Below are positions 5,309 to 62,107 of a stretch of DNA of 64,000 bases, piece by piece. This DNA comes from an uncultured Candidatus Saccharibacteria bacterium. GTDB taxonomy: Bacteria > Patescibacteriota > Minisyncoccia > Phycocordibacterales > UBA2100. How positions within the stretch are numbered: position 1 is the stretch's first letter; each line of letters starts with the position of its first letter. A program made the position numbers and the translations under genes. The DNA lies in NCBI GenBank assembly GCA_964471165.1, contig CAYYEX010000006.1, positions 19,779-83,778 on the forward strand, given 5' to 3'. Under the pieces are notes generated by a model. That model was not told the origin of the DNA. It saw only the letters and a program-made list of their open reading frames with translations, and did not search any database.

Positions 5309-5348
5309 CAATCCGAGCAGTTGGGCTGCGCCGTGCGCAAAACAGAAT

Positions 5349-43580: not shown

Positions 43581-43630
43581 TGAATCAGTAAGGCCCCAGT
43601 CCTCGCGGACCAGGGCCTAACTGCTTCATG

Positions 43631-43702
43631 CTCCGCGGGTAGGATTCGAACCTACGACCAATCGATTAACAGTCGACCGCTCTACCGCTGAGCTACCGCG
43701 GA
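43631..43702 (-). tRNA. tRNA-Asn (anticodon GTT), no encoded CCA
   Basis: I folded the cloverleaf by hand. The acceptor is UCCGCGG/CCGCGGA, positions 8-9 are U8 A9, the D-arm is GCUC-AGCGGUA-GAGC, the anticodon loop is CU-GUU-AA, the T-arm is GUAGG-UUCGAAU-CCUAC and the discriminator is G73. Confidence 0.9.
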
Positions 43703-46988: not shown

Positions 46989-47051
46989 CAGAAGGGAATA
47001 CTCAACCTATAGTTTTTTCCGCTCAAGCCCTGTGGGCTCCAACACTGATTT

Positions 47052-47447
47052 ATGCTCAATACCGCTTTTGCAATCGCGTACGTTCGACGATTCATCACGA
47101 CAAACGTGCTCACAATTATTGTGGAAACGGCAGTGCTGTTTCTGCTTGCACGATACGTGTTTAAAAAAGAAAAACTCACTACGCGACAACTCTTGTTCGC
47201 CGGCATATTCGCAAGTTTTGCAACAATTCCGTACGTATGGTTTGTCTTTCCAAACGTAACGTCTTGGCCACGAGAAACCTCGCTGATGTTCAGTGAGTCA
47301 TTTGTGACCGTTGTCGAAGCTATCTGGTACCGTTTCGCACTCAAAACGAGTTGGAAAGCGTCGTTTGCAATTTCAATCATTTGTAACCTCGCTTCGTATC
47401 TTTTCGATATTATACTTCGCACGAATGGTATCTGGCTGTATTGGTAG
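47052..47447 (+). CDS. hypothetical membrane protein
   Basis: It has 4 predicted transmembrane helices and is preferred over the antisense ORF at 46904-47476. Confidence 0.4.
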   Translation: MLNTAFAIAYVRRFITTNVLTIIVETAVLFLLARYVFKKEKLTTRQLLFAGIFASFATIPYVWFVFPNVTSWPRETSLMFSESFVTVVEAIWYRFALKTSWKASFAISIICNLASYLFDIILRTNGIWLYW

Positions 47448-47523
47448 CCACTCTTCACCAGCACTCCATGTTGCATGTACTACGCTTGGCCATTATTGAA
47501 GGTTCTTAAAAATCGTCTATTTT

Positions 47524-47733
47524 ATGGCAGATACAGTAATCACGAATACTCCCGCACCATCTACAGATAGCTCAGCGGGCTGGGTTGTCGCAGTACTTAT
47601 TCTCATTGTTGTGCTCGCAGGAGGAATTTTTGCGTATCAGCGAGGAATGTTCGGGGGGGCAAAGGCCGACACAACCAACATTAACGTCACCGTACCGAAT
47701 CCTTTGAAGGCGGATTCAGGCTCAGCGCAGTAA
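47524..47733 (+). CDS. small membrane protein (69 aa)
   Basis: It has one transmembrane helix (GWVVAVLILIVVLAGGIFAY). Confidence 0.35.
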   Translation: MADTVITNTPAPSTDSSAGWVVAVLILIVVLAGGIFAYQRGMFGGAKADTTNINVTVPNPLKADSGSAQ

Positions 47734-47837
47734 TACAAGGGGGGGGATAGTCAACGAGAAGGCGCCGGATTGTCTCCGGCGCATTCTAGATTTCTTCTTC
47801 ATGAACCCTCCATCTTTAAAAAGCTACGGTTACAACC

Positions 47838-48641
47838 ATGAACAACACAACAGGAGTTATTGGAGTTATTATCATTATTATTTTAGCTATCGCTGTCTTC
47901 ATGCTCGTCGTGAAAACGCCCGCAACGACCACAGTCACAGCCACATCTACTGCAACGGGTACAACGGGGGATGTAACAGCGCCTGCTGGGAGCAATCCGA
48001 GCCCGACAGATGTTTCAGAAGATACGCCGGGGAGTGCACCAAAGGCGACCACAAACGAAACAGCAGCACCAACCGACACAACTGTTGTTGTGACAGGTAC
48101 GGTAAACCCAAACGGCGCTCAAACTGAGTACTGGTATGAATATGGAGTTGGGACATCGCTCGGTAAACAAACCACCAAACAGACCATTGGTTCAGGGCGT
48201 GTTGCAATCGTTGCACCTGGCTATATCACGGGGCTAACAAAGTCGACCACCTATTACTACCGTTTAGTTGCCGAAAACCAGTACGGCAAGAGCACGGGTG
48301 AGCAAAACACCGTTCGAACTTCAGCGGCAAGTACGCCTACAAGTGCAGCGGTGCCAACGGCAAAAACATTCCCCGCAAACGCAATCACGAAAACGACTGC
48401 CACGTTGCGCGGTGAAGTGAATCCGAACAAGGGGGAAACTCAGTACTGGTTCGAATATGGACGAACGAATCGTCTCGGCAATACCACGCCGTTCATGTCG
48501 CTTGGAAATGGAAACACATCTATCGTGGCATCAGCGGAACTCAAGCTCAATCCAAACACCACCTACTACTTCCGCGTGAACGCACAAAATGAGTTCGGAA
48601 CGGTCAATGGAACCATCATGACGTTCAAGACGGCACGATAA
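47838..48641 (+). CDS. membrane-anchored protein with two repeats of about 95 aa (TEYWYEYGVGTSLG / TQYWFEYGRTNRLG)
   Basis: An N-terminal transmembrane helix is followed by a Thr/Pro-rich linker and a duplicated beta-rich domain. Confidence 0.5.
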   Translation: MNNTTGVIGVIIIIILAIAVFMLVVKTPATTTVTATSTATGTTGDVTAPAGSNPSPTDVSEDTPGSAPKATTNETAAPTDTTVVVTGTVNPNGAQTEYWYEYGVGTSLGKQTTKQTIGSGRVAIVAPGYITGLTKSTTYYYRLVAENQYGKSTGEQNTVRTSAASTPTSAAVPTAKTFPANAITKTTATLRGEVNPNKGETQYWFEYGRTNRLGNTTPFMSLGNGNTSIVASAELKLNPNTTYYFRVNAQNEFGTVNGTIMTFKTAR

Positions 48642-48736
48642 AACACCGATTCATGCGAAATGTGCGTCGAGTAGTGTAGGATGCACTGCATCGAGGTCGG
48701 CGACAGGCTTTACTAAACGGTAATCAAGAATGATTC

Positions 48737-48895
48737 CTATGAATTCCACCGACAAAGAAATCGCAGACAAGAAGGCCCTCGACGAACAGGCAGAATCTGA
48801 TGCAAAGGCAGAAGCAGTTCCTGCAGCAGATGTTCCTGTAGCAGAAGTTCCTGCAGCAGAAGTGCCGACCACAGAAGAGGCCGCTACTGCGTAGC
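48737..48895 (+). CDS. small acidic protein with AEVP pentapeptide repeats (52 aa)
   Basis: I translated it by hand. An intrinsic terminator follows at 48905-48935. It is preferred over the antisense ORF at 48651-49010. Confidence 0.3.
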
Positions 48896-48904
48896 GATAA
48901 AAAT

Positions 48905-48935
48905 CGAACAACCCCCGTGAAAGCGGGGGTTTTCG
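48905..48935 (+). terminator. intrinsic terminator
   Basis: The hairpin aacccccg-tgaaag-cgggggtt is followed by ttcgttt. Confidence 0.55.
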
Positions 48936-48995
48936 TTTATGAAGATAATGAAGAAATAGGCTCGCAATCAGTTTTAATAGGTATAGACTGAACGA

Positions 48996-50031
48996 GTGAT
49001 TAAGCCGCAAGGGGCTCGAGACCCCTTAGATGACTCAAAGGATGGGCACGTGCTCGCGCGAGCTATTATCGACACCATCCGGGAGCCACTTATAGTTCTC
49101 GACGGAGATTTGCGGATTGTTGCTGCAAGTGGCTCTTTTTTCAAAAAAATTTGCACTCTCCCACGACGGGACGTACGACACAATGTTTTACGACCTCGGC
49201 AACGGTGAATGGAACATACCGGCGCTTCGAACGTTGCTCGAGCAAGTAATACCTGAGCACACGACAGTAGAGGACTATGAAGTTTCTCACGAGTTCTTGC
49301 GACTTGGGCCGCGCATCATGCTTGTGAATGCGAGCGAAATTAGTTTCGAAAGTGGTGAAAAAAAGATGCTCCTATCCATTCACGATATAACGGAGCAGCG
49401 TGCAACAGAGAAAAAGATTGAGCGTCTCATGCAGCAGAAAAACATTCTGCTCGACGAAATGCGTCACCGTGTTGCCAACAGCCTGCAATTGATTGCAAGC
49501 ATCCTCTCACTCAAAGCCACCACAGTAGGTTCCGATGAAGCCCGCGTGCACCTTGAGGATGCACAAAGCCGGATTCTTTCCATCGCGAATATACAGCGGC
49601 ATCTCGATCCAACTGACGGAGTTTCAGACCATGTAGAGATAGGTCCGTATCTAACCGCTCTTTGTAAGAGTCTTGAGAATTCAATGATTGGTGGTGGAAA
49701 ACCGGTAACACTTACCGTCAAAGCGGGAGCAGGCAACGGAACGTCGGACGAAGCGATGAGTATTGGGCTCCTCACAACGGAGCTTGTCATAAATGCATTG
49801 AAGTACGCCTTTCCGAGTGGAAAGGGTGATATCGTTGTGTCGTTTGGGTCCGAGGGGCATTCGTGGGACTTGTCGATTGCTGATAATGGCGTAGGATATC
49901 GACCCGATGAAAAACGGGACGGACTTGGTACTAGTATCGTGAAATCAATTGCGCGACAGCTCTCAGCTGACCTCACGGTGGTTAGTAATAGTTCCGGAAC
50001 GACAGTCTCGCTCAGCTGCAAAACGAAATAA
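48996..50031 (+). pseudogene. HWE/HisKA_2-type sensor histidine kinase interrupted by a +1 frameshift in an A7 tract
   Basis: The N-terminal ORF (...IVAASGSFFKK) and the main ORF (KKFALSHDGTYD...HRVANSLQLIASILSL...) join perfectly if the A-run at 49143-49149 is shortened by 1 nt. Confidence 0.6.
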
Positions 50032-50286
50032 GGACACTCGACCTGCTACGAGGCGTGTATACTATGTTGCAATGACGCTGCGACAATTTTTTCGCTACAT
50101 AACTAACAACGAGGAGACCTCTCGTCATGAAGAGGGATTCGACATCGCATTTTTTATCATAAACACAATCGCTCTTATCGGTGGGGGCACTTATTTGGTT
50201 GTAATTGGTGAGTGGGAGTGGCTGCCGTTTCTCGTCATTGAGTACACCTGGGCGGTGGACACGATGCGTCACAATCGCCCGTAACG

Positions 50287-50793
50287 TTATTCGACCGGAA
50301 TTTCCACCAAGAGATTCTCGTTTCCAATTTCCTTCTTTGAGAAGTCAGCCCACCGTATCCATGTGGGCCGTATCCAGAGCACCGAAAGCTCGCCGTCCAA
50401 TTTACCTGCGGGAACAAATCTGCTTGTCTGTTGGGAGAGCACGTTCATTAAATCTGGAATATGTTTCTCTCTATCTTCGGTGCTCTCAAGTTCAGAGGCT
50501 AGGCCTTCAATTTGCAGCGTCCGAGGAGTGTCCTGTGTACCAACGGTGAAGGCAACTTGCGGGTGCGCCTTGATTGCATTGTATTTGCGGCTGCCGCGTT
50601 TCGTTAAAAAATAGATATTGAAGGTCTCGTCACTCACGTAGTAAATAACAGAAGCGTGTGGCGAATAATCTTTTGCAACGGTTGCGAGCACTCCTGCTGT
50701 ATGTGCTTTTGCAAACGCGAGGGCATCTGCCCGGGCCTCAGAATCAGGTGTCATATATGGTGAGTATACCACTGTGAGTTTTGAAGCTGGCAT
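50287..50793 (-). CDS. pyridoxamine 5'-phosphate oxidase-like FMN-binding protein
   Basis: It has a PNPOx-like split-barrel pattern (GVLATVAKDYSPHASVIYYV). Confidence 0.65.
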   Translation of the reverse strand: MPASKLTVVYSPYMTPDSEARADALAFAKAHTAGVLATVAKDYSPHASVIYYVSDETFNIYFLTKRGSRKYNAIKAHPQVAFTVGTQDTPRTLQIEGLASELESTEDREKHIPDLMNVLSQQTSRFVPAGKLDGELSVLWIRPTWIRWADFSKKEIGNENLLVEIPVE

Positions 50794-50821
50794 GTGGCAA
50801 TAACAGGTATATACTTTTTCC

Positions 50822-51271
50822 ATGTACGAACAAAGGTCAGGACGAGGTTCGTTGCCGGAGTGGGGCTCGGTCCCACACTATTACGGCGATGTGGTGCGCA
50901 TCATTTTTCTTATCTGTGCAATCGTTGTAGGTCTCTTGGCACCACTCAGTGGGAGCGTGGGAGTGGGACTCGTTATTGCAATGCCGATTGTCTTGGTGCT
51001 CATTATCCTTGCGGGCTTCACCAACCCGCACAGTACTTTCGTTATGATTCTCGATACCATTGCGGCGGTACTCGGGATACTCATTGCCGAAACGTACGCA
51101 GTTGTAGCGTTTGCAAGCGAAGAGATGCTCGTGTTTCTCACATTTGAAGCGATTGTATTCATGTTATTTGTTGCGCTCTACTTTAGCGCGAAGAATGTCC
51201 GCGCAGCAATGATGCACAAAATTGGAAAAACAGATAGCCCGTCGGAATTCGACGGAACTACATCTCAGTAA
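50822..51271 (+). CDS. hypothetical membrane protein
   Basis: It has 4 transmembrane helices. Confidence 0.4.
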   Translation: MYEQRSGRGSLPEWGSVPHYYGDVVRIIFLICAIVVGLLAPLSGSVGVGLVIAMPIVLVLIILAGFTNPHSTFVMILDTIAAVLGILIAETYAVVAFASEEMLVFLTFEAIVFMLFVALYFSAKNVRAAMMHKIGKTDSPSEFDGTTSQ

Positions 51272-52499
51272 TAGGCGTCTTTCTTTCAAACAAGTTTGAC
51301 TCCACGTGTTGCGGGTCAAAGCCAATACCGATAAATCGTGCTGGTAAAGCACTCAGAAACGGAAACATTCGCAGCAGCTTGAAAGGCAGTGGGATATGCG
51401 TTTGGCCCCGCGAGCGCAAGAAGGGTATGAGGAAACGGTTCTGTATCGCGCTTTGGACATTCTGCATTTTCCGCACAGCATTCTCTCGTCGGTGCTGGAC
51501 TTCGGAAAGGTCGTGCATTGTTGGTGCGCCGCGACCAAATGCGCGAACTAACACGTTGCCGGCTGCAACTGCGTCGTGGATTGCTACATTGATGCCTACG
51601 CCACCCAGTGGAGACATCGCGTGTGCACTGTCGCCAATGCACAGCACACCGTCCTTGTACCACTCGGTTGCGTGGTCGAGCGTTACGCTCAGGAGCTTCA
51701 CATTGTCCCACGAAACGATTTCCTTCACGGATTCAACCATTGACGGAGCAAGGTTCACGATATCAGCACGGAACTTCTCAAGTCCATCGACTTTCATGGC
51801 ATCGAGCTTTCCTTTTTCAATCAAAAATCCGCATTGCCAATAGTCACCGCGGTCGAGCATCACCATTACCTTGCCATCTTGGAGCGTGCCGAGCGATTGC
51901 TCCGGGTCTGCCTCTGTGGCTTTCAACTTGAACCACAGTACGTCAAAGGGCACGGAGAGCGTTTCCATGTTGAGAGCCGCCTTTTCCCGAATTGTAGAAT
52001 GACGGCCGTCACACCCAACAACAAGCTCGGCGCGAATTTCAAACTCCTCGTTTTTGTGCTTTGCTTTTATTCCGACCGTGCGACCGTTTTCACAAATTAA
52101 ATCGGTTGCATCGGTTTCCATATGCAAGTGGAACGACGGATACTGCTTTCCCTTGCCGGCAAGAAAGTTCAGAAAGTCCCATTGGGGGAGAAATGCGATA
52201 TACGGCTCGCGTACGTTGAGTCTCGAGAGGTCTGCGATTACAACTGATTTCCCGCCGACACGACCCACCATTTGGCGGGTCTTATTATGCGGTAACTTCA
52301 AAAAGTCTTCGAGAATCCCAAGCTCATGCAGGATTTCCATTGTGGACGGGTGAATGGTGTCGCCACGAAAATCGCGGAAAAAGTCGGGCCATTTTTCAAG
52401 CACGTGCACGTCTACGCCGGCGCGTGCGAGCATATAGCCAAGCATCATGCCCGCCGGGCCACCACCCGAAATCACACACCGGGTCTGTATATTTTCCAT
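51258..52499 (-). CDS. FAD-dependent monooxygenase (UbiH/aromatic hydroxylase-like)
   Basis: It has the Rossmann motif VISGGGPAGMMLGYMLARAG and a DG motif (GDSAH). Confidence 0.75.
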   Translation of the reverse strand: MENIQTRCVISGGGPAGMMLGYMLARAGVDVHVLEKWPDFFRDFRGDTIHPSTMEILHELGILEDFLKLPHNKTRQMVGRVGGKSVVIADLSRLNVREPYIAFLPQWDFLNFLAGKGKQYPSFHLHMETDATDLICENGRTVGIKAKHKNEEFEIRAELVVGCDGRHSTIREKAALNMETLSVPFDVLWFKLKATEADPEQSLGTLQDGKVMVMLDRGDYWQCGFLIEKGKLDAMKVDGLEKFRADIVNLAPSMVESVKEIVSWDNVKLLSVTLDHATEWYKDGVLCIGDSAHAMSPLGGVGINVAIHDAVAAGNVLVRAFGRGAPTMHDLSEVQHRRENAVRKMQNVQSAIQNRFLIPFLRSRGQTHIPLPFKLLRMFPFLSALPARFIGIGFDPQHVESNLFERKTPITEM

Positions 52500-52581
52500 C
52501 GTTCTATAATAACTCGACTGCATCGTTACTTCATGAGGTGGTGGTACAATGCACCAACTTATTCCATAAAATCACTCATAT

Positions 52582-52983
52582 ATGAATCCCGTCGTTCATT
52601 TTGAAATGCCGTACGATGATGCCAATCGCGCTGCAGAGTTTTATACAAAGGCTTTCGGGTGGAAGCCGAACATTTTGGGACCTGAAATGGGAGATTACGT
52701 GGTCGTTCACACCACGGATACCGACGAGAATAATATGGTAAAGACCCCGGGAAACATCAACGGGGGTCTTTTCAAACGCACGAAGCCGGAGCAAGGCCCA
52801 TCTGTTGTAATCGCGGTCGACAACATACACGAAGCAATGAAAAAGGTGGAGGCTGCCGGAGGAAAGATTCTCGGCGGCATGAATGCGGGAGAGCCAGACG
52901 AAATTCCAGGTATCGGACTTTACTGCGCATTCATCGATTCAGAGGGAAATCGCGCATCAATGCTTGAACCGAAGGGGATGTAG
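52582..52983 (+). CDS. VOC/glyoxalase-family protein
   Basis: It carries the HFEMPYDDANRAAEFY signature. Confidence 0.7.
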   Translation: MNPVVHFEMPYDDANRAAEFYTKAFGWKPNILGPEMGDYVVVHTTDTDENNMVKTPGNINGGLFKRTKPEQGPSVVIAVDNIHEAMKKVEAAGGKILGGMNAGEPDEIPGIGLYCAFIDSEGNRASMLEPKGM

Positions 52984-52986
52984 CCC

Positions 52987-54228
52987 ATGAAGGTGATTGT
53001 TGTTGGTGCAGGTGCTTGTGGATTAATGGCCGCACGAGAACTTTTCCGTGCGGGCAATTCGGTCACGATACTTGAGGCGCGCGAGCGCCTCGGCGGGCGC
53101 ATCTATCCATTGCCGATTAAAGACTTTGGATACGAAGCAATGGGAGGCGCGGAATTTGTGCACGGCGAAGCGCCAGTTACCAACGCACTTGTTGAAGAAG
53201 CTGGATTTCACTACGAGCAAAATACTGAATGGTGGAGTGTAACCGACGGGGAGCCCTCCCAATCGCACACTCCCTCGCCGCACAAGCCAGAACTTGAGCG
53301 AGCGCTCGCGCAGCTCACGGATGACATGACCGTTAAGGAGTTTCTCGACTCTCGATTTCCCGGCGAGGAATATGCGCAGATACGAGAGTATGCACGGCGT
53401 TGGACAGAGAGCTACGACGCGGGTGATATCGCGCGAGCCAGCGCGATTGCCATGAAAGACGGCATGCTTTTTGATAGCGAGTGGGGCCAGCGCTCTCTGA
53501 AAGAGGGGTATGGAGCACTTTTACGATTGCTCGCTAAAGATTTGCAGTCAGATATACATTTGAACGAAACCGTTTCTGCGGTAGATTTCTCGACTCCTGT
53601 TGTGCGGATAAAAACAAACACGGGTATTTTCGAATGTGATAAAGTTATCATTACTGTTCCGTTGCCGCTGATATCAACAATAGAGTTTACGCCGGCGATT
53701 CCAGAAAAGGTAAAAGCCGCGGCGGACATCGGCTATGGGTCCGTTGTGAAAATTATCCTGCGGTTCAGAACAAAATGGTGGACGGGTGTCCGCGAAAACA
53801 TATTCGAACGACTTTTTTTCATGTTTTCCAATGAGGCGATACCTACGTGGTGGACACAGTATCCAGAACCGCACCCCACGCTCACTGGATGGGTTGGCGG
53901 TCCTCGCGCTCACGCGCTCCAAGCGCTTTCAGAGTCAGAGCTTGAAGTGCTCGCACTTAAATCGTTATCAAACATCTTTAGTATCTCAATAGAGGAGCTA
54001 CAGGCGGAACTTATTTCGTGGAAGGCAGTTGATTGGGACAACGACCCATATGCTCGAGGTGCATACAGCTATTGGACACCTGAAACAGATGCCGCTCTGG
54101 AGATTTTGGGTGCACCCGAAGAAGATAGAGTGTTTTTTGCAGGCGAAGTGTTCGGTAATTTCGCAAATGCCACTGTCGAGGGAGCATTTGCGAGTGGAAA
54201 AGCTACAGCGCAGAAGTTAATGAATTAA
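52987..54228 (+). CDS. flavin-containing amine oxidase / protoporphyrinogen-oxidase-like oxidoreductase
   Basis: It has VIVVGAGACGLMAAREL and ILEARERLGGR dinucleotide-binding motifs. Confidence 0.75.
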   Translation: MKVIVVGAGACGLMAARELFRAGNSVTILEARERLGGRIYPLPIKDFGYEAMGGAEFVHGEAPVTNALVEEAGFHYEQNTEWWSVTDGEPSQSHTPSPHKPELERALAQLTDDMTVKEFLDSRFPGEEYAQIREYARRWTESYDAGDIARASAIAMKDGMLFDSEWGQRSLKEGYGALLRLLAKDLQSDIHLNETVSAVDFSTPVVRIKTNTGIFECDKVIITVPLPLISTIEFTPAIPEKVKAAADIGYGSVVKIILRFRTKWWTGVRENIFERLFFMFSNEAIPTWWTQYPEPHPTLTGWVGGPRAHALQALSESELEVLALKSLSNIFSISIEELQAELISWKAVDWDNDPYARGAYSYWTPETDAALEILGAPEEDRVFFAGEVFGNFANATVEGAFASGKATAQKLMN

Positions 54229-54280
54229 TCGTGATAGCCAAAAAAGCGAGTAAATAAGCCACGGAATGGCGTTTTTTTGC

Positions 54281-54309
54281 TTGACAAAATAGTTTTTATG
54301 TCCTACAAT
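54281..54309 (+). promoter_or_regulatory. sigma70-like promoter (TTGACA-17 bp-TACAAT) at the left edge of the GC-rich island
   Basis: It has an exact consensus -35 and a near-consensus -10 with a 17-bp spacer, about 75 bp upstream of the first island gene. Confidence 0.5.
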
Positions 54310-54383
54310 AGAGGCCGCTACTAAAGTAGAGGTTTCTACCAAAGTAGATCTTAGGCCGTTCGTTGACAAGGAGGTAATAGACA

Positions 54384-54884
54384 ATGAACAGTCGCAGGAG
54401 TGGGCAGGTTGCAAGTTTGTCAGTGATGGCATTCGCGCTTGCCCTTGGCGGATGTGATGTGGACCAAGCGCCGATTCAGCGCGACGTCTACGCCGGCATG
54501 TCGCCGTCTGAAGCGCTCCAGCAGTGCGCAATTGACTGGGGGTCTCAGGACCTTTGCGTCAGCATTGCTGACGCGAAACAGAAGGAAACTGCAGAGAAGC
54601 AGTACGCTGCTTCATCTGGCTCGTCGCACGGTGGAGGCGGTGTCTTCTTCGTGCACGGACCCGGCTACGGCTACGGCGATCGATCGATCGTCTCGGGTTC
54701 GCAGCGGATCGTTCCGCAAAGCGCACTCAATACGTCGGCTCTCGTTAAACCGTCGTCGATCTCCACGTTCTCAAACACGGGGGGATTCCGCGGCGGGATC
54801 AGCACTGCAACAGCTGCGGGTCGCGGCGGGTTCGGTGCGACCGGACACGCTGCAGCCGCGGCCTCATCTGGAGGGGGAAGCTAA
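54384..54884 (+). CDS. DUF1190-like lipoprotein (YgiB/YjfM-like)
   Basis: It has a lipobox (LALGGC) and a Gly-rich C-terminus with RGGFGATG-like motifs as in enterobacterial YgiB. GC is high. Confidence 0.55.
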   Translation: MNSRRSGQVASLSVMAFALALGGCDVDQAPIQRDVYAGMSPSEALQQCAIDWGSQDLCVSIADAKQKETAEKQYAASSGSSHGGGGVFFVHGPGYGYGDRSIVSGSQRIVPQSALNTSALVKPSSISTFSNTGGFRGGISTATAAGRGGFGATGHAAAAASSGGGS

Positions 54885-56042
54885 ATGAAGCGTTCAATCA
54901 TCAGTCCGCGCGAAGACTGGCAGAAGCGATGCGAACGCATCGACTTCGGCTGGCACACGCAGGGCGGTGTCAAATACTGGAACGAAGGCGTGTGCTATCG
55001 CTTCACGGCCGCGCAGATCGATCAGATCGAAGCGGCCGCCGAAGAAGCACACGCGATGTGCATGGCGCTCGTCGCCGACATCATCACGCGTGGACGATAC
55101 GAGGGCTTCCGCTTTCCCAAGCAGGTGCTCGACATGATCGTCCCGACCATCGAAGCGTCGTGGAAACGGAGTGATCCGTCCCTCTACGGCCGCTTCGACT
55201 TCGGCGTGAAATTCGTGAACGGTGCACTCGGGCTCAAGCTTTTTGAAAACAATGCGGATACGCCGACCTCTCTCTACGAGGCGTCGGTCGTACAGCATTT
55301 GTGGATGAAGGATCTCGGGTTCGCCGATCAGTTCAACTCGATCGAGGAGAAGATGGATGCGTTCTTCAAGGCGCATCCGGCAACGCACATGCACTTCGTC
55401 GCGCTGCGCGACGCGGGCAAGGAAGACTGGGGCACGGTCGGCTACATCGCTGAACGTGCCGAAGAGTGCGGCAAGAGCGTCAATATCCTCTCGGTCGAAG
55501 ATCTCGGCTGGGACGGAAAACAGGCATTCACGGATCTGAGCAATACACCCATCGGCACGGCCTTCAAGCTGTATCCTGGTGAGTGGATGTTCGGGGACGT
55601 GTTTGGTCAAAACATGGCGCTGACAACGACCCGGTGGATCGAACCGCCGTGGAAAACTCTGCTGTCGTCCAAGGCGATCTTGCCACTCTTGTGGGAAAAG
55701 TATCCCAATCATCCGCTGCTGCTCCCTTCGTTCTTCGAAGCCGACGGCGACAAGATGATGGAAGGTGACTGGATCAAGAAGCCGCTGTTTTCGCGCGAGG
55801 GTTCCAACGTGTTCCACGTGCGTGATGGCGTCGAAGAACTTGCTGCCGGGTCACACCTCAGCAGCTTCTACGAACATTACGGCTACATCGGCCAGCAACG
55901 CTTCGACTCGTCGAAGTTTGACGGCATGATGCCCGTGTTGGGCGCGTGGATCGTGAACGGTGAAGCAGCCGGCATGGGCATCCGCGAGGACGCCGGTGTT
56001 ACTGGAAACGGCAGCCTATTCACTCCGCACTACTTCGACTAA
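54885..56042 (+). CDS. glutathionylspermidine-synthase-like ATP-grasp amidoligase (YgiC/YjfC family)
   Basis: It shares blocks with E. coli YgiC that I recall from memory (ENNADTPTSLYEA, LLPLLWEKYPNHP, KPLFSREGSNV, GIREDAG). Confidence 0.8.
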   Translation: MKRSIISPREDWQKRCERIDFGWHTQGGVKYWNEGVCYRFTAAQIDQIEAAAEEAHAMCMALVADIITRGRYEGFRFPKQVLDMIVPTIEASWKRSDPSLYGRFDFGVKFVNGALGLKLFENNADTPTSLYEASVVQHLWMKDLGFADQFNSIEEKMDAFFKAHPATHMHFVALRDAGKEDWGTVGYIAERAEECGKSVNILSVEDLGWDGKQAFTDLSNTPIGTAFKLYPGEWMFGDVFGQNMALTTTRWIEPPWKTLLSSKAILPLLWEKYPNHPLLLPSFFEADGDKMMEGDWIKKPLFSREGSNVFHVRDGVEELAAGSHLSSFYEHYGYIGQQRFDSSKFDGMMPVLGAWIVNGEAAGMGIREDAGVTGNGSLFTPHYFD

Positions 56043-56068
56043 CATCAACAGCTCACGAGGGAACTACG

Positions 56069-56497
56069 ATGACTCCTGAACAATTACTGTTCTTCGCAAT
56101 TGCATTCGGCAAACATCTGATTGCATTTGCGCTCGCGATCGCATTGCTCACAGGATTCACGCGCTTCTATGTATGGTTCACGCCATACAACGAGTTCGAC
56201 GAGATCCAGGCAGGCAGGGTCGCCTCGGCGATCTCGCTCGGCGGAGCCATGATCGGCTTCACTATCCCGCTGCTGGTTGCCATGTTGGTTACGACCACCA
56301 TGTACGGTTTCGTCGCCTATCTCGGCATGTTTACGGTGTGGGCCGGGTTTGTCTGCCTTGTTCAGCTCGGCTGCTTCAAGGTGATGTACCGGTTCTACCC
56401 GAAGCAGATCGAGTCCAACAACATTGCGGCCGCGACTATCTACGCGTTCGTATCTGCTTGCGTCGGCGCGCTGAACGCCGTCTGCATCATTCCCTGA
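56069..56497 (+). CDS. DUF350-family membrane protein (YjfL-like)
   Basis: It has 4 transmembrane helices (AFALAIALLTG..., SLGGAMIGFTIPL) as in YjfL. Confidence 0.55.
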   Translation: MTPEQLLFFAIAFGKHLIAFALAIALLTGFTRFYVWFTPYNEFDEIQAGRVASAISLGGAMIGFTIPLLVAMLVTTTMYGFVAYLGMFTVWAGFVCLVQLGCFKVMYRFYPKQIESNNIAAATIYAFVSACVGALNAVCIIP

Positions 56498-56536
56498 TTT
56501 CAGCGGACTAAAATTCAAACAGGAGCAAGGAAGACA

Positions 56537-57199
56537 ATGAGCTACGAAAACTCTGCGACCCGACGTTCGTCTGGCAACGGCTGGAAGATCTTCGGCATCA
56601 GCATGCTGGTGGGCGCGATCATCATCGCGATCTTCGGCTACAACCTGACGCTTGGTTCGCGCAACGTGCTGGTGCGTCACAATAACAACCTGGAAGGCAC
56701 GTTTGCCGGCATCAACAATGCGGCGCAGAAGCGCGCCGACATCGTTCCGAACATGGTTTCGGTCGTCGATCGCTTCGCGAAGCAGGAGAAGGATGTGACG
56801 ATCGGTGCGACCGAGGCGAGGGCGAAAGCCACCTCGATCACATTGCCGCAGAACGCCACCCCCGAACAGATCGAAGCGTTCGGCAAGGCACAGCAGGAAA
56901 TGTCCGGTGCCCTCGGCCGGTTGCTCGCGGTCTCGGAGAGGTATCCGGACCTCAAGAGCGACAAGCTGTTCCTCGACCTGCAGGCGCAGCTCAAGGAAAG
57001 CGAGACGCAGATGTCCGGCGCTCGCGCGGCCTATATCCGCGCGGTGCAGAGCTACAACGTGAACGTGGAATCCTGCCCGTTCGCCTGCGTTGCGGCGATG
57101 ATGTTCGGCTACCAGAAGAAGCCGCAGCTCGACTTCGGTCCTGATGCCGCACAGCGTCGTGCGGCACCTCCGAAGGTGGAGTTCAACAAGAAGGACTGA
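56537..57199 (+). CDS. lemA: LemA-family protein
   Basis: An N-terminal transmembrane helix is followed by LemA blocks (RYPDLKSDKLFLDLQAQL, AAYIRAVQSYN). Confidence 0.8.
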   Translation: MSYENSATRRSSGNGWKIFGISMLVGAIIIAIFGYNLTLGSRNVLVRHNNNLEGTFAGINNAAQKRADIVPNMVSVVDRFAKQEKDVTIGATEARAKATSITLPQNATPEQIEAFGKAQQEMSGALGRLLAVSERYPDLKSDKLFLDLQAQLKESETQMSGARAAYIRAVQSYNVNVESCPFACVAAMMFGYQKKPQLDFGPDAAQRRAAPPKVEFNKKD

Positions 57200-57232
57200 T
57201 CTTCCCGACCTGATGGTCGGATGCACAAATGC

Positions 57233-57268
57233 AAAAGGCCGTCGCGTTCACTCGCGGCGGCCTTTTTG
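57233..57268 (+). terminator. intrinsic terminator closing the GC-rich island
   Basis: The hairpin ggccgtcgcg-ttcact-cgcggcggcc is followed by tttttgttttt. Confidence 0.6.
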
Positions 57269-57282
57269 TTTTTATATAAAAA

Positions 57283-57861
57283 CTACTTGCGCAGACCCCA
57301 CGGAGAGGCATGTGGCAAACGATTGGCGCGCGCAAGAAAGAATTGTGAAAGCCCGAATATACACATGACGAATGCGGCAATGAGGCGGTAGTGTACCCAT
57401 GGGTCCTCACCATACGCTCGCCACACAAACTCGTTACCGATAGCAACTGCCAGAAAAAAGAATGACCACCTGAGCGAAAGGATTTTCCATCCATAATCGG
57501 TTATATGGAACATTGTTCCGAAAAGCTCTTTCAGTAATCCGCGGCCGTAGAGAAATCCGGAGAATAGAGTGATACCGAAAAGCCCGTTATACAGCGTGTA
57601 CTCAAGTACAACCCAGTATGGGTCGCGCGAAAGTAGTGTTGCACCGCCACATACCAAGACGAACGTGCTCGAAATCATTGAAAACAAGGGAATACGGTTG
57701 TCGCGAATAAGCGACCACACGAGTGCAACAACTGTTGTTGCAACAAGAGATGCGGTGCCGGCAAGAATGCCGTACTGTCTCGCGATAACAAAAAATACAA
57801 CGACCGGGCCAAACTCAATTACAACCGACGCAAAGAACCCCTTGGTAAGCATGTGCTGCAT
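57283..57861 (-). CDS. intracellular septation protein A-like (YciB/IspZ family) membrane protein
   Basis: It has VIEFGPVVVFFVIARQYGILAGTAS and 5 transmembrane helices. Its composition matches the host. Confidence 0.6.
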   Translation of the reverse strand: MQHMLTKGFFASVVIEFGPVVVFFVIARQYGILAGTASLVATTVVALVWSLIRDNRIPLFSMISSTFVLVCGGATLLSRDPYWVVLEYTLYNGLFGITLFSGFLYGRGLLKELFGTMFHITDYGWKILSLRWSFFFLAVAIGNEFVWRAYGEDPWVHYRLIAAFVMCIFGLSQFFLARANRLPHASPWGLRK

Positions 57862-57911
57862 CCTATCATCGGGCGGGAGTTGGTGTACTTAAAAATCGGC
57901 TAAAATGTTGT

Positions 57912-59144
57912 ATGCGCAAGGGTCGAGGCAAAACTCCGTTGAAAATAGGACTCGTGGTGCTTGGAGTAGGATTCGCTCTCGGTTTCTTTTTTTTGAGTCC
58001 CCGGCAGAGCCCCGAATTGCTTTTCGGCTGCAGGATTGAGAATGACTCGCAGGGCGCAACGATGTCCCAGTCGTGTGTATCGCTCACTGTTCAAAAGTTA
58101 CTCAAAACAGTGAGTGCTAAACAGCTCATGGAATACATCACAGCACCAACGACGCCCGGTGTTGTTACAACGAATTGTCATGGAATCGCGCACATGATTG
58201 GAACAAGCGAGTACCGTTCCAGTCGTTCCGTTGAGCGCGCTCTTGAGAAATGTACACCCGCCTGCGCGGGCGGATGTCTGCATGGAGTTGTTGAAACGGC
58301 GATTGAGGATGAGTTTGGGGATTCTGTCGAAGCAGAAGAAGCAGCGCATGACCCGCTGGTGTTGATTCGCTCTGGCAAAAAATATTGCACGGTTGCGGAA
58401 CTCTGTCATGGGGTAGGGCACATTATTTTTAAAACTTTTGGTACGTACGAGCAGGCGCTTTCGACGTGCGCCTCGATTTCAGAGGATATGAACAGCGAGC
58501 GTTGCTACGAGGGTGTGTTTATGGAGAGTCTGGGCGACGAAAGCTCGTTCGGTTTTCCACGCGCTCCCGTAGTTGATGCGCAACACGCGCAAGATTATTC
58601 ATACCCATGTAATAGTGTTCCCACGCCATATCGTCTCGCTTGTTTTCGTTACCTCCCGGTCTTTCAGGATGCCTTGTTCCACGACAATCAAATTTCCAAC
58701 GTGGAGCAGAAAGTTACGATTCAAAAAGGTGTCTGTAACAGCTTTGGTGCCGAGGAACGTCTGAAATGTATTTTTGGAATGGCCGGGAGTGTGAGCGCGC
58801 GAATCTATAACCGAGACCTTGATGCGGTGATGCCGTTTTGTAACAAGTACTTTTCTGATACTGCAGATGTTTCTGCATGTGCAGCAGGAATCGCAATGAA
58901 CTGGACGCAGTTTGGGGAAGACGGGCGCGCAATGAACTTCTGTGCAGGGCTCGACGAGCCGCACGAGCAGAACAGTTGTTACAACATCGCGTTCGAACTC
59001 ATTCTAAGACGTGTTGAAACCATAGAGCGTGTGTGCGGGGGTTCCAATGAGTTCGCGCTCTGCGAGCGAGCGAGGCTGAAATACATAGAGCATCCCGAGG
59101 TGGGACAGGTAGCCGAGCGGGCGCTGTTGGGAAAACCAATTTAG
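57912..59144 (+). CDS. secreted Cys/His-rich repeat protein (paralogue of 37578-39026)
   Basis: It has a transmembrane/signal helix (LKIGLVVLGVGFALGFFFL) and repeated C-x-H-G-x-x-H units (NCHGIAHMIG, GCLHGVVETA, LCHGVGHIIF). Confidence 0.55.
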   Translation: MRKGRGKTPLKIGLVVLGVGFALGFFFLSPRQSPELLFGCRIENDSQGATMSQSCVSLTVQKLLKTVSAKQLMEYITAPTTPGVVTTNCHGIAHMIGTSEYRSSRSVERALEKCTPACAGGCLHGVVETAIEDEFGDSVEAEEAAHDPLVLIRSGKKYCTVAELCHGVGHIIFKTFGTYEQALSTCASISEDMNSERCYEGVFMESLGDESSFGFPRAPVVDAQHAQDYSYPCNSVPTPYRLACFRYLPVFQDALFHDNQISNVEQKVTIQKGVCNSFGAEERLKCIFGMAGSVSARIYNRDLDAVMPFCNKYFSDTADVSACAAGIAMNWTQFGEDGRAMNFCAGLDEPHEQNSCYNIAFELILRRVETIERVCGGSNEFALCERARLKYIEHPEVGQVAERALLGKPI

Positions 59145-59398
59145 AGCCTCATAGATTTGTGGAGGGTCGATTTGCTACAATCGCCGCCATGGTTCGGCAG
59201 ACCCTCATCACTGTAGGAATCCTATGGGCGCTTACCATCGCTGTTTTCGTGTATGTGTGCTTCGCATTCGGATTCATTCAGTATCTCGACACCGTGCCGA
59301 AGATTTCATACGCCACGTTTCCATTGGAAAAGTAATCCACAGTTCGACAGAGTGCCAATATTTTTGTATACAAAGAGAGGTGAACGAAGGGAAAATGG

Positions 59399-59866
59399 AT
59401 GAGAATCAGGCTTTTTACAGCACCGGAGCGTAGCGACTACGATACGGTCGTCGCACAACTGAAGCAATGCCGCAGCGACGTGGAGGAGTACCTCAGAATC
59501 AAAAATAACCCGGAGAAGAAAAACGAGCTTTTGAAGAGAATCACTGCAACTGTGCCGAGTGGCGTATACATGCCAGGGTGTGGCACGTCGCAAGAAGCCT
59601 TCTTTGTGGAGGGCGTACAGCGAAAACAGGGAAAACGTAATGCTGAGCAGGCCTTTTGCGTTGTCTACGCCGGTCTTCTGAAGTCCGACGGCGATGAGCT
59701 CGCATATGACGGCAAATTCGGGGCTTTTCGTCTTGTTGAAAAGCCTGCGAAGCCGCGGTTGAAGCGTTCCGAAATTCTGCTGGTCGATACCGCCGGATTT
59801 CTGTGTCCGATAACTCGGGACGGCTATCGCGGCCCGCGCTTCGTTCGTGTCGGAGAGGTTCTTTGA
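59399..59866 (+). CDS. hypothetical protein (155 aa)
   Basis: GAGAGG lies 9 nt upstream and an intrinsic terminator follows at 59873-59903. It is preferred over the antisense ORF at 59306-59932. Confidence 0.45.
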   Translation: MRIRLFTAPERSDYDTVVAQLKQCRSDVEEYLRIKNNPEKKNELLKRITATVPSGVYMPGCGTSQEAFFVEGVQRKQGKRNAEQAFCVVYAGLLKSDGDELAYDGKFGAFRLVEKPAKPRLKRSEILLVDTAGFLCPITRDGYRGPRFVRVGEVL

Positions 59867-59872
59867 ATCATG

Positions 59873-59903
59873 CAAGCCCGCCGGGGGACCGGCGGGCTTT
59901 TCA
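59873..59903 (+). terminator. intrinsic terminator
   Basis: The hairpin aagcccgccgg-ggga-ccggcgggctt is followed by ttcacat. Confidence 0.5.
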
Positions 59904-59939
59904 CATGCCCTACAGAGGTGACTCGTGTACAATCAAGAT

Positions 59940-60308
59940 ATGAATCTGCGCATAAAGACGAAGGACTTTGAGCTTACTGGAGCTACTAAGAAGTATTTAA
60001 TGATTCGGGTGAATGCCCTCGAGAAGCTGCTTGCTTCAGACGCTGCGATTTCGCGCTGCGAAGTTGAAATCGGGCGAGCTGCAGGAAAACAGCGCCACGG
60101 CAACCACCTGTACTTTGCTGAATTTCTGATTCGCGCGCCACGACGTAAACCGGTACGAGCAGTGAATCACGAAGCAACAATTAATGCGGCAATAGACAAC
60201 GCAAAAGAGGAGGCGATGAAACAGCTTCGAAAACAAAAGACCGTAAAGGAATCGAAAACTAAGAAAGATGGCGCACGCATCAAGCGCTCGTTGCAGGCCG
60301 GCCGTTAG
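59940..60308 (+). CDS. hpf: ribosome hibernation promoting factor / RaiA (S30AE family)
   Basis: MNLRIKTKDFELTGATKKYL...AIDNAKEEAMKQL matches the HPF fold pattern. Confidence 0.7.
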   Translation: MNLRIKTKDFELTGATKKYLMIRVNALEKLLASDAAISRCEVEIGRAAGKQRHGNHLYFAEFLIRAPRRKPVRAVNHEATINAAIDNAKEEAMKQLRKQKTVKESKTKKDGARIKRSLQAGR

Positions 60309-61186
60309 TCCGTTGCGGGAGATGCTCCGGAGCGAGCAAACTCTGTAAAGGTCATTGCGTTTTTGCCTTCTGGTTTTACCGTGTCGAGTACGAGCTCGTC
60401 GTATTCAATGTGTGCCTCGAGGAGCTGAACTCGAATGCGCTTACCGTCACGTACAAAAAATGCATACGCTGTTGGCCAACCTTCGTAGGCCATAATTTTG
60501 AGAAGGTTGGTGCGCGCATCGTCTGTAAACCGGATTTCGCCGTCCTGTTTTTCAAACTTCCTTGTATAGGTGGCAACATCATGATTTTGCGGATGTGCCT
60601 CGATTTGTTTGCGTACCCACAGCGGAATCATTTCGCATAGCAACTTTCCACCTTCGCGCGCAAGTATTTCTTCAAGGGCGGCTGCACGAGGCGGCCACGG
60701 CGATATTGGTACACGCCGCTGTGCAACGATTGGGCCGTGGTCCATTTCCTCGTCGAGCACCATTATGGTAACGCCAGTTTGAGACTCGTCGGTGAGAATG
60801 GCAGAGCGAATGGGGGACGGCCCGCGAAGGCGTGGTAATAGTGATGGGTGCATGTTGAGCGTGCCATGTTTTGGAATATCGAGAACAGCGGTTTTCAAAA
60901 GCGCACCGTAATCGGCAACTACAAAAAGCTCGCAGCCTGATGCCTTGAGTGCGGCGGTTGTTGTTTGGTCGATTCGTGCCGTTTTGATAAGTGGTATTGC
61001 GAGGTTTTCTCCGAGGATTCCCACGGGTGAAGGCGAGCGTGCGAGTCCACGGCCCTTGGGCATGTCTTGAGACGTCACAATGAGAGCAGGGTACAACTTG
61101 GCACTAACGAGTTCCTCCAGGACAAAGCGTGCAATGTCGCCGGTCCCGAAAAAGACGAACTTAGGAATGTTTTGGTTCGTCGTCAT
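60305..61186 (-). CDS. fmt: methionyl-tRNA formyltransferase
   Basis: It has FFGTGDIA and the LNMHPSLLPRLRGPSPI catalytic block. It overlaps def, the classic def-fmt operon arrangement. Confidence 0.85.
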   Translation of the reverse strand: MTTNQNIPKFVFFGTGDIARFVLEELVSAKLYPALIVTSQDMPKGRGLARSPSPVGILGENLAIPLIKTARIDQTTTAALKASGCELFVVADYGALLKTAVLDIPKHGTLNMHPSLLPRLRGPSPIRSAILTDESQTGVTIMVLDEEMDHGPIVAQRRVPISPWPPRAAALEEILAREGGKLLCEMIPLWVRKQIEAHPQNHDVATYTRKFEKQDGEIRFTDDARTNLLKIMAYEGWPTAYAFFVRDGKRIRVQLLEAHIEYDELVLDTVKPEGKNAMTFTEFARSGASPATD

Positions 61187-61691
61187 AGAGTTCGCTTGCT
61201 TTGTCTGTGTAAAGGATGCCTTCGAGGTGATCCATTTCGTGCTGAAAGATGTGAGCTAAGAATCCAGAGGCGCCACGGGTAAACCGCTTTCCGTTCTCGT
61301 CGTATGCGCGCACTGTCGCTTTTTCGCAGCGGGGAACCATGCCCCACTTTCCGCGCACCGAAAGACAGCCCTCGTGTTTATCAATTCGTTTTCGCGAGAC
61401 ACTCGTGAGTTCTGGGTTGATGTATACCTGGTCCGGAAGGGGGGTGGGCTCGGAGTCGTCGTCTTCATCTTGAGCGGCGCGCGCAAGGGAGCGACCGGAA
61501 ACGATAAATAGTCTGACGGGTTCGCCGACTTGCGGCGCGGCGAGTGCAACTCCATATTCCTCTTTTGAAAGAAGTGCTCGCATTTCTTTTATCAGTGACT
61601 GTATCTCCCTACTTTGAATCGCTTCGAGTGCGACTGGCGCTGCGACATCGCGTAGAACGGGGTTGTCGTGTTCGGGGATAATTTGTCTCAT
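61161..61691 (-). CDS. def: peptide deformylase
   Basis: It has GCLS, the QHEMDHLEG metal-binding motif and an EGCLS-like block. Confidence 0.85.
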   Translation of the reverse strand: MRQIIPEHDNPVLRDVAAPVALEAIQSREIQSLIKEMRALLSKEEYGVALAAPQVGEPVRLFIVSGRSLARAAQDEDDDSEPTPLPDQVYINPELTSVSRKRIDKHEGCLSVRGKWGMVPRCEKATVRAYDENGKRFTRGASGFLAHIFQHEMDHLEGILYTDKASELYDDEPKHS

Positions 61692-61774
61692 GATGGTGCT
61701 CGGTGGCGTCACTATTACGTTTTTTGCCACATTTGGCAATACGAAAAATAGGACTTCGCGCGTACAATAGGCGC

Positions 61775-62107
61775 ATGAAGCATATCGGCTCTCAATTGAA
61801 TCGTTCGATGAAACAAACGAGCGAAACCGAGCGCGGCGAGATAATGCGCTACTTTTGTCAGGAGCTCAATAAAGCGCGCGTTCCCGACGGCCTGCCACCG
61901 ATATCGATGGGGCGCATGGGTAAACTCCTACAGCAGATTCCCACAAAAGATTTGTATTTTTTGAAGAAAGTGTGCGACGATGCGCCGCATTTCAGTAAGA
62001 AGTTCTGGTGGGAGATTAAACCCGAGAACCATACCCCCGAGGCCAAAGCGGCATCAAAAAAGAAGTTTGACGAAATGAATCGGCAAAAGCGTTTGCGAGG
62101 CGAATAA
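61775..62107 (+). CDS. hypothetical lysine-rich protein (111 aa)
   Basis: A TACAAT lies 7 nt upstream of the ATG, making it near-leaderless. The composition is protein-like. Confidence 0.4.
   Translation: MKHIGSQLNRSMKQTSETERGEIMRYFCQELNKARVPDGLPPISMGRMGKLLQQIPTKDLYFLKKVCDDAPHFSKKFWWEIKPENHTPEAKAASKKKFDEMNRQKRLRGE

Follow-up and report, generated by a model that had tools for sequence, protein, structure and literature searches.

A GC-rich four-gene operon with a YgiC/YjfC-type ATP-grasp ligase and a LemA-family protein, probably acquired horizontally by a Patescibacteria chromosome

The 64-kb stretch of contig CAYYEX010000006.1 analyzed here as a whole (64,000 nucleotides, referred to as the window) contains a compact gene cassette in which four open reading frames (ORFs) occupy positions 54384 to 57199 of one strand (+) with intergenic gaps of 0, 26, and 39 nucleotides. 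They encode, in this order, a small lipoprotein (ORF1), an ATP-grasp ligase, a DUF350 membrane protein, and a LemA-family protein, and the stop codon of ORF1 directly abuts the start codon of the ligase gene. A sigma70-type promoter precedes the genes, separated from the start codon of ORF1 by a leader of ~75 nucleotides (54310 to 54383), and a strong intrinsic terminator follows them (Table 1). A first-pass annotation of the DNA had described four co-directional genes bracketed by exactly these two signals, and the ORF calls, the promoter score, and the stem of the terminator bear this out. We consider it probable that the block (~54.27 to 57.27 kb) is a horizontally acquired accessory operon of ~3 kb in the chromosome of a Paceibacteria-type member of the candidate phyla radiation (CPR), and that it encodes a membrane-associated polyamine-conjugation module of the YgiBC/YjfLMC type.

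Table 1. Features of the cassette and its flanks in the window, followed by related cassettes at other loci (L numbers).
Feature	Position	Strand	Description
Sigma70-type promoter, TTGACA-17-TACAAT	54281-54309	+	11/12 consensus score
Ribosome-binding site AAGGAGG, strong, 5' of ORF1	54368-54374	+	read directly
ORF1, small lipoprotein, 166 amino acids (aa)	54384-54884	+	lipobox; short DUF1190-like family member
YgiC/YjfC-type ATP-grasp acid-amine ligase, 385 aa	54885-56042	+	PF03738
DUF350 (YjfL-family) integral membrane protein, 142 aa	56069-56497	+	PF03994
LemA-family protein, 220 aa	56537-57199	+	PF04011
Intrinsic terminator, right-hand cassette boundary	57233-57268	+	14-pair stem (9 G-C), then T-run
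Left flank, flavin amine oxidase gene, host	52987-54228	+	PF01593, E = 5e-56; GC at third codon positions (GC3) 0.49
Right flank, ispA-family (intracellular septation protein A) gene, host	57283-57861	-	PF04279, E = 3e-33; GC3 0.53
L002			ligase - DUF350 - LemA, then similar terminator and ABC ATPase gene; truncated, last three cassette genes only
L087/L088, L089			lipoprotein - ligase - DUF350 - LemA, between murG and ftsW-mraY
L135			four cassette genes, then Ion_trans_2 channel gene
L003			lipoprotein - ligase - DUF350, then serS
L132, L133	705-1244 (L132), 4032-4940 (L133)		arginase/agmatinase-family gene directly 5' of lipoprotein - ligase; sister clade
L141 (IMG/VR UViG_3300013131_000102)	4517-7121		lipoprotein - ligase - DUF350 - LemA; phage-like contig, 28% GC

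The cassette differs in composition from the DNA around it. Its GC content is 0.55 to 0.61 against a background of 0.507 ± 0.020, and the shift is greatest at third codon positions, where the four genes reach, in gene order, 0.641, 0.754, 0.741, and 0.824 against 0.549 ± 0.040 for the 49 other genes of the window (z-scores of 2.3, 5.1, 4.8, and 6.9, respectively). This contrast is stronger than the by-eye estimate given at first pass (~60% versus ~50%). In tetranucleotide usage, the 2.9-kb interval 54501 to 57400 shows the largest deviation in the 64 kb (z = 5.7). At the left end, GC rises from ~0.45 to ~0.60 within 200 nucleotides, and it drops back at the right end. Codon choice in the cassette and in the background differs sharply, with ATC accounting for 86% versus 37% and ATA for 0% versus 19% of isoleucine codons, and AAG for 79% versus 41% of lysine codons.

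Codon selection for high expression could raise GC3 in a native, vertically inherited operon, an explanation in keeping with the strong promoter and ribosome-binding site and with a shift that is greatest at third codon positions. However, tetranucleotides and overall GC deviate too, and none of the remaining genes of the window approaches the cassette, mreB, glyA, fmt, and def included (the highest background GC3 is 0.618). Moreover, the cassette is absent from three relatives with related flanks, and the same block is found at unrelated loci elsewhere, as described below. We regard vertical inheritance as extremely improbable. A second compositionally foreign gene of the window is a 154-aa ORF at 43908 to 44372 (+; GC 0.61, GC3 0.74) that has no Pfam match and lies ~200 bp from a tRNA-Asn gene (43630 to 43702).

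The second gene of the cassette encodes a stand-alone synthetase that matches the GSP_synth family over the whole model (PF03738, positions 1 to 371 of 371; E = 1e-116, 390 bits, cut-off 29.3) and aligns over its full length with the structures of the E. coli enzymes YgiC (PDB 7UK8, E = 7e-79) and YjfC (7UK6, E = 5e-68). Together with ENNADTPTSLYEA, which is common to the window ligase and E. coli YgiC, these matches uphold the initial description of an amidoligase that resembles glutathionylspermidine synthetase (GspS) and shares sequence with YgiC. Across 29 diverse members of the family, 57 alignment columns are invariant, and the window ligase keeps every one of them. These columns include the motifs R103-x-D105, E121-x-N123-ADTPT, K299-P, R304-E-G, and R367-E, which, by analogy with GspS structures, are predicted to bind ATP/Mg. 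A hydrophobicity scan of the ligase gave no hydrophobic segment, and the enzyme is predicted to be cytoplasmic.

The Pfam match and the name 'glutathionylspermidine synthase' used by JGI and NCBI would both fit a genuine glutathionylspermidine synthetase that serves thiol/redox buffering. The protein nevertheless lacks the N-terminal CHAP amidase domain of the bifunctional enzyme GspSA, and the model of the latter (NF007801) is matched in its C-terminal part only (487 to 602 of 619), with 94 bits against a cut-off of 882. The full-length alignment is instead with YgiC and YjfC, which make no glutathionylspermidine (Sui et al., 2012, as cited in PMC11762307 and PMC12506659), and the conserved partners of the ligase are membrane proteins rather than redox enzymes. 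A role as a glutathionylspermidine synthetase is thus very unlikely. Ligation of spermidine to peptides has been reported in vitro, for the E. coli proteins YgiC and YjfC only (Pederick et al., 2023, as cited in PMC11762307), and RefSeq names proteins of this type peptide--spermidine ligases; PMC11762307 and PMC12506659 describe their physiological substrate as not established. Since an in vitro activity is now reported for YgiC and YjfC, along with the two structures, the statement of the first-pass annotation that no member of the cassette has a defined substrate or function is outdated. By analogy with these E. coli homologues, to which it is ~40% identical, the window enzyme would link a polyamine to the carboxylate of a peptide or protein at the expense of ATP.

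ORF1 encodes a signal peptide with the lipobox LALGG/C, the core motifs QRDVY...C-x2-DWG-x3-LC...GPxY, a C-terminal RGGFG, and a Gly/Ser-rich tail; lipobox and Gly-rich tail had both been recognized before. Searches of ORF1 against Pfam and NCBIfam gave no match even at E ≤ 10, Pfam DUF1190 (PF06693) included, and its closest relatives score 7 to 15 bits against PF06693 (cut-off 22). In contrast to these searches, a profile-profile comparison (hhalign) of the ORF1 family (A2) with a DUF1190 alignment (A3) gave a probability of 97.4% (E = 1e-11), and still 93% (E = 3e-7) when the signal peptide was removed. The Cys pair of ORF1 aligns with the second Cys pair of DUF1190, so that two of the four conserved DUF1190 cysteines are present, while RGGFG and the lipobox are invariant in both alignments, and RGGFG is aligned between them. 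An exhaustive profile search with the ORF1 family against 1.84 billion representatives returned 76 relatives, 24 of which match Pfam DUF1190, and no other family recurs among the 76. Intermediates encoded 5' of ligases in Betaproteobacteria, L135, and L141 match both profiles.

Because the profile comparison, the shared motifs, the intermediates, and the 24 relatives agree, we class ORF1, as judged from its sequence, as a short, divergent, two-cysteine relative of DUF1190 that fails the curated Pfam model. The original label of a DUF1190 lipoprotein therefore holds as a distant relationship, while the Pfam profile misses the protein, which has one Cys pair and not two. The C-termini of the lipoproteins (54810 to 54884 in the window; also in L003, L087, L089, L133, L135, and L141) carry runs of small residues (...GGS, ...SSS, ...ASS), and the E. 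coli proteins YgiB and YjfM have ...GG as their last residues; should a C-terminal carboxylate be the target of the ligase, such tails may be relevant.

The last two genes encode proteins with transmembrane segments. The 142-aa protein matches DUF350 (PF03994; E = 2e-23, 83 bits, cut-off 26) and E. coli YjfL (phmmer, E = 1e-8) and has four hydrophobic segments above the Kyte-Doolittle threshold. The 220-aa protein matches LemA (PF04011; E = 3e-39, 134.5 bits, cut-off 26.2) and has a single N-terminal transmembrane helix (residues 15 to 33) followed by a helical-bundle domain, the same layout as in other members of the family such as T. maritima TM0961 (PDB 2ETD) and the magnetosome protein MamQ. 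It matches 2ETD by sequence (E = 1e-22), and a single-sequence structure prediction with a mean predicted local distance difference test (pLDDT) of 72 matches it in Foldseek (E = 4e-7, TM score 0.82). Against the NCBIfam MamQ model it reaches 59 bits (cut-off 250), and it is not a MamQ equivalog. The GSP_synth, DUF350, and LemA assignments proposed at first pass are all supported above the cut-offs of their hidden Markov models (HMMs). The idea that LemA is a remote PspA/ESCRT-III homologue was rejected, as Foldseek against the PDB gave 2ETD only, with Vipp1 at E = 0.65.

The host of the cassette was assigned by means of the window serine hydroxymethyltransferase, which is 90% identical to a protein of Candidatus (Ca.) Pacebacteria and 82% identical to one of Ca. 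Paceibacterota; further named matches belong to Patescibacteria or Parcubacteria. The host is therefore a CPR bacterium (Paceibacteria-type Patescibacteria), in agreement with the earlier impression of a genome otherwise unrelated to Proteobacteria. The upstream amine oxidase led to L090, a 56.9-kb metagenome contig (51% GC) that is a syntenic relative without the cassette. Window and L090 share the gene order S41 peptidase - PNPOx - h149 (149 aa) - FAD monooxygenase - amine oxidase - ispA - S30AE - fmt - def, with 56 to 84% protein identity in the flanks (ispA 70%, amine oxidase 56%), and in L090 a 265-aa MBL-fold gene takes the place of the cassette between amine oxidase and ispA. Two further loci without the cassette, L091 and L098, run from the amine oxidase straight to S30AE - fmt - def - mreB. 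From this conserved order it follows that the flanks are ancestral and that the cassette is an addition or replacement in the window lineage. A scan of GTDB genomes and later searches gave neither the genome of the window itself nor a close (>60%) relative with an empty site.

The compositional steps at both cassette ends are sharp, and the source is a metagenome-assembled genome (262,681-bp contig), as would be expected if assembly or binning had joined a GC-rich block from another organism in silico to a Patescibacteria contig. However, a second pipeline (Logan, run ERR3094302) gave a contig of 15,804 bp that covers both junctions and is 100% identical to window positions 45998 to 61801, and the steps coincide with the promoter and the terminator in intergenic DNA rather than falling within genes. 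Furthermore, close relatives of the cassette are found on other contigs from small genomes, flanked there by housekeeping genes, and one such contig is linked to Ca. Kaiserbacteria. At another site, a filled and an empty genome resolve the junction to the base. An artefact is highly improbable in the light of these data.

All of the nearest relatives of the ligase are metagenomic (P0002, P0003, P0004, and P0005, with 76, 75, 56, and 53% identity, respectively). LemA, which had been described as appended to the other genes, is not a one-off: no fewer than five other loci have the four genes in this order, with ligase identities as low as 43%. Identities to the window proteins in L002, L087, and L135 are 76, 58, and 52% for the ligase, 73, 54, and 44% for DUF350, and 68, 62, and 43% for LemA, and the lipoproteins of L087 and L135 are 53 and 38% identical to ORF1. 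All four proteins diverge in parallel across the loci, and lipoprotein and ligase genes are always translationally coupled (-4 to +10 nucleotides). A TTGAC(A/T)-17-TAnnAT box lies 70 to 100 nucleotides 5' of the lipoprotein gene in every related cassette copy, and the terminator stem GCCGTCGCG...CGCGGCGGC is kept 3' of lemA in the window, L002, L087, and L089. Since this stem is conserved even though the proteins are only 57 to 76% identical, the terminator travels with the genes. The notion of a self-contained cassette is in accord with this joint recurrence of gene order and terminator at other chromosomal sites.

The most direct view of the cassette as a unit comes from L087 and L136, the flanks of which are 87 to 89% identical at the nucleotide level; their murG products share one 90% cluster, as do their ftsW products. 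Where L087 has 3,317 bp (2002 to 5318), L136 has the 14 bp TAGCGCTAACCAAA (8036 to 8049), giving a presence/absence polymorphism resolved to the base. Within the 3,317 bp, the four genes with their promoter and terminator are followed by a 67-aa ORF, and the terminator then occurs a second time at the end; no target-site duplication was found in the comparison of the L087 and L136 junctions. The cassette is therefore an accessory unit that has been precisely gained or lost.

Two further candidate elements of the cassette ends were rejected. A leader hairpin with apparent compensatory changes is common to L087 and L089. A structured leader or riboswitch was nevertheless dismissed, as no fold is common to the window, L087, L089, L003, and L135 and the z-scores are weak except for L003; an Rfam scan of the window returned two tRNAs only and no leader family. 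Likewise, a 32-nucleotide pair of putative terminal inverted repeats (54287 to 54318 and 57257 to 57288; 72% complementary) scored below dinucleotide shuffles.

The related cassettes also bear on the origin of the block. The inosine monophosphate dehydrogenase encoded by L003 falls in the same 90% cluster as the protein MBM3272036.1 of Ca. Kaiserbacteria, another CPR lineage. On this contig, which has 61% GC, the GC3 of the cassette (0.66 to 0.76) matches that of its own flanks (0.66 to 0.80) and also that of the window cassette. The cassettes of L087 and L089 are close in composition to their surroundings of ~48 to 50% GC, and the L002 cassette is GC-rich beside a flank of 49% GC, as in the window. 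Because the L003 cassette agrees in GC3 both with its own flanks and with the window cassette, a GC-richer CPR lineage appears, from these sequences, a more plausible type of donor than a proteobacterium. A proteobacterial donor was rejected, as the window ligase is 38 to 47% identical to named proteobacterial and phage homologues (best GTDB match 47%). In a neighbour-joining tree, which is indicative only, it falls into a metagenome-only clade (54 to 76% identity) that is sister to an Acinetobacter/Haemophilus group and lies away from E. coli YgiC and YjfC. The enterobacterial gene neighbourhood invoked in the first-pass annotation thus stands as far as the parts are concerned, which correspond to ygiB/yjfM, ygiC/yjfC, and yjfL, but the cassette is not specifically enterobacterial or proteobacterial, the clade of the ligase being metagenome-only with one CPR-linked member. 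In the same tree, YgiC-like genes of two GTDB contigs titled Saccharibacteria and Patescibacteria (L051 and L063) group with Bacteroidota (Sphingobacteriia/Chitinophagia); these represent either separate transfers or misbinned contigs.

Using family HMMs, we found DUF350 beside the ligase in 38 of 80 GTDB loci and 21 of 80 viral loci, and LemA in 3 of the 80 viral loci and in none of the 80 GTDB loci, a figure that under-samples the window clade because the GTDB scan used two patterns, one of which, with the motif E[YF]NADTPT, misses the ENNADTPT of the window ligase.

With L141, a four-gene layout identical to that of the window was found on a viral contig, where it is flanked by phage-type DNA ligase, DprA-like, and metallophosphoesterase genes and, at its opposite end, by a DUF7873 gene. 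The cassette could thus be a phage-delivered moron, i.e., an auxiliary block of CPR-infecting phages that was left in the chromosome and serves the phage, for example in surface modification or superinfection exclusion. PHROGs matches of the ligase (phrog_6215, E = 3e-104), DUF350 (phrog_29907), and LemA (phrog_1383) would be in line with such an origin, as would the 139 phage records that encode YgiC-like ligases and the precise presence/absence without a transposase. The phage genes annotated as glutathionylspermidine synthase (phrog_6215; Ralstonia phage phiRSL1, Achromobacter phage Motura; PMC9992855) belong to the same mobile enzyme family. However, these phage ligases are only 37 to 45% identical to the window enzyme, none of those in the 139 records exceeding 45%, and most phage copies lack LemA. 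For the L141 ligase the identity is just 43%, a value surpassed on no viral contig, for which reason a direct phage donor was rejected. In addition, the window offers no phage context, with no phage, integrase, or att-like feature within 8 kb on either side of the cassette, and the L003 and L087 cassettes share the composition of their chromosomes. None of the four proteins has a match in PADLOC-DB 2.0 at E ≤ 0.01, and a defence system was rejected for lack of such a match. We therefore consider a phage moron unlikely, while carriage by phages is a possible route of transfer.

A horizontally acquired chromosomal operon, the reading that we prefer, has clear counterparts among described systems. 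In E. coli, the operons tolC-ygiB-ygiC and yjfIJKLMC encode ligases of the same family, and there as in the cassette the lipoprotein gene lies directly 5' of the ligase gene and is translationally coupled to it, with DUF350 in the same operon. The gene order in the cassette is lipoprotein - ligase - DUF350, whereas in E. coli it is DUF350 - lipoprotein - ligase. The cassette ligase belongs to a separate clade of the tree, and the cassette lipoprotein differs from E. coli DUF1190 proteins in being short, with one Cys pair. TolC, PspA (YjfJ), YjfI, and YjfK were not found in the 64 kb, and LemA is added; phmmer searches with E. coli YjfI, YjfJ, and YjfK gave nothing in the window, nor were homologues of these three found in the relatives of the cassette. 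As a member of a CPR lineage, the host would have no outer membrane, unlike E. coli.

Operons in which a GspS-like ATP-grasp ligase, YjfL/DUF350, and a DUF1190 lipoprotein occur with PspA-CesT/Tir, a K+ channel, and DUF2491 have been described, as have PspA-less variants with DUF4247/DUF2617 or band-7/SHOCT, plus AdoMet decarboxylase (AdoMetDC) and polyamine oxidase (Ravi et al., 2024, mSystems; PMC11237479). The third group of Ravi et al. and the two PspA-less variants resemble the cassette in having the same core triad, a variable membrane-associated partner, and polyamine genes nearby. In the related cassettes, a K+ channel gene like that of Ravi et al. follows the four genes in L135, and the arginase-family genes of L132 and L133 provide an independent link to polyamine synthesis. 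The window cassette differs from these operons in that LemA is the partner and DUF2491, CesT/Tir, band-7/SHOCT, DUF4247/DUF2617, and AdoMetDC are missing, and it is found in a CPR lineage, whereas those operons are from Proteobacteria and Actinobacteria. LemA is not mentioned in PMC11237479, and no description of LemA as a partner of a polyamine ligase was found in the literature searched. In F. columnare, deletion of sppA, which encodes a signal peptide peptidase, leads to joint induction of lemA, ygiC, and two lipoprotein genes (PMC13236525). This co-induction is circumstantial and would be consistent with an envelope role of the module. Apart from LemA and the CPR setting, the component families and their association have already been described, and the cassette is not a new kind of system.

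Taken together, the data suggest the following working model. The cassette travels as a whole, with a sigma70-type promoter of its own at one end and a terminator of its own at the other. A cytoplasmic ATP-grasp ligase would activate a peptide or protein carboxylate with ATP and join it to the amine of a polyamine. Its predicted partners are the translationally coupled lipoprotein of DUF1190 type, at the outer side of the cytoplasmic membrane, and, within the membrane, a four-helix DUF350 protein and a single-pass LemA helical-bundle protein. LemA may occupy the slot that is taken by PspA/CesT, band-7/SHOCT, or DUF4247/DUF2617 in the described variants. The most likely role of the polyamine conjugates would be to adjust or to report the state of the cell envelope, i.e., its charge or stress. 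The sequence data establish the gene content, the signals, the foreign composition, the insertion as compared with L090, the mobility of the block, and the family memberships. The chemistry is modelled on the E. coli homologues, and topology and physiological role are likewise predictions.

Several points weigh against this interpretation. No in vivo substrate is established for any member, and the characterized E. coli enzymes are only ~40% identical; the host might also lack spermidine. A direct enzyme-substrate relationship between ligase and lipoprotein is topologically awkward, because the ligase is cytoplasmic and the lipoprotein exported. The proposal that LemA takes the PspA slot rests on position, as there is no detectable structural relationship to PspA/Vipp1. 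With respect to the acquisition, no recombinase, transposase, tRNA gene, or target-site duplication was found at the window junctions, and a replacement rather than a simple insertion could apply, because L090 is fairly distant and has another gene in the slot. Finally, the metagenome-assembled genome and the Logan contig very probably go back to one set of reads, so that read-level continuity is not independently proven.

According to a more far-reaching proposal, episymbiotic CPR bacteria and their phages possess, in the form of this cassette, a transferable device that modifies surfaces autonomously. The ligase would polyaminate the Gly/Ser tail of the coupled lipoprotein before export, or another carboxylate of the envelope, and DUF350 and LemA would organize or sense the product in the membrane. 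We regard this proposal as quite improbable, and the lipoprotein tail as a ligase substrate is speculative. If it were true, LemA would be an unrecognized functional counterpart of PspA/band-7 in envelope homeostasis linked to polyamines, and the search for the physiological substrate of the YgiC/YjfC family would end with the lipoprotein.

YgiC/YjfC-type ligases are widespread and occur in many phages and in envelope-stress operons, while their physiological substrate is not established. With a horizontally acquired polyamine-conjugation operon as the probable reading, a minimal four-gene unit that moves from promoter to terminator among very small genomes narrows the required partners to the lipoprotein, DUF350, and LemA, a set that here does without PspA and presumably without an outer membrane. 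LemA thereby joins the proteins linked to polyamine-conjugating envelope modules, and the cassette is compact enough to serve as a construct for heterologous expression and the search for substrates. It also provides a clean, base-resolved case of recent gene gain in the CPR, a group usually framed by gene loss.

The amine oxidase gene on the left flank has as its closest structures LSD1/2, MAO, putrescine oxidase, and spermine oxidase, and its product is a possible functional neighbour of the cassette in polyamine catabolism. A functional link to the cassette was nevertheless set aside, as the gene occupies the same syntenic position in the cassette-free relatives L090, L091, and L098 and adjoins the cassette in no other cassette locus. 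Since synteny marks the amine oxidase gene as part of the host genome, its position next to the cassette is probably a coincidence.

Other parts of the window are variable or of interest in their own right. The stretch from the S41 peptidase gene to the PNPOx gene measures ~4.3 kb in the window (45.9 to 50.3 kb) and ~0.9 kb in L090 (2929 to 3841); the additional DNA of this further variable region contains an acyltransferase_3 gene and genes for a 267-aa Ig-like protein and a HisKA_2 kinase. Just beyond ispA, a 410-aa cysteine-rich protein (57912 to 59144, +) gave no match in Pfam, NCBIfam, or PADLOC, and L090 has an unrelated 475-aa ORF at this position. Finally, glycogen/alpha-glucan genes at 2.8 to 8.0 and 26.6 to 27.8 kb (GT4/GT5 synthase-like, GH57, and two GH15 glucoamylase-like genes) form a set that is sizeable for a CPR genome.

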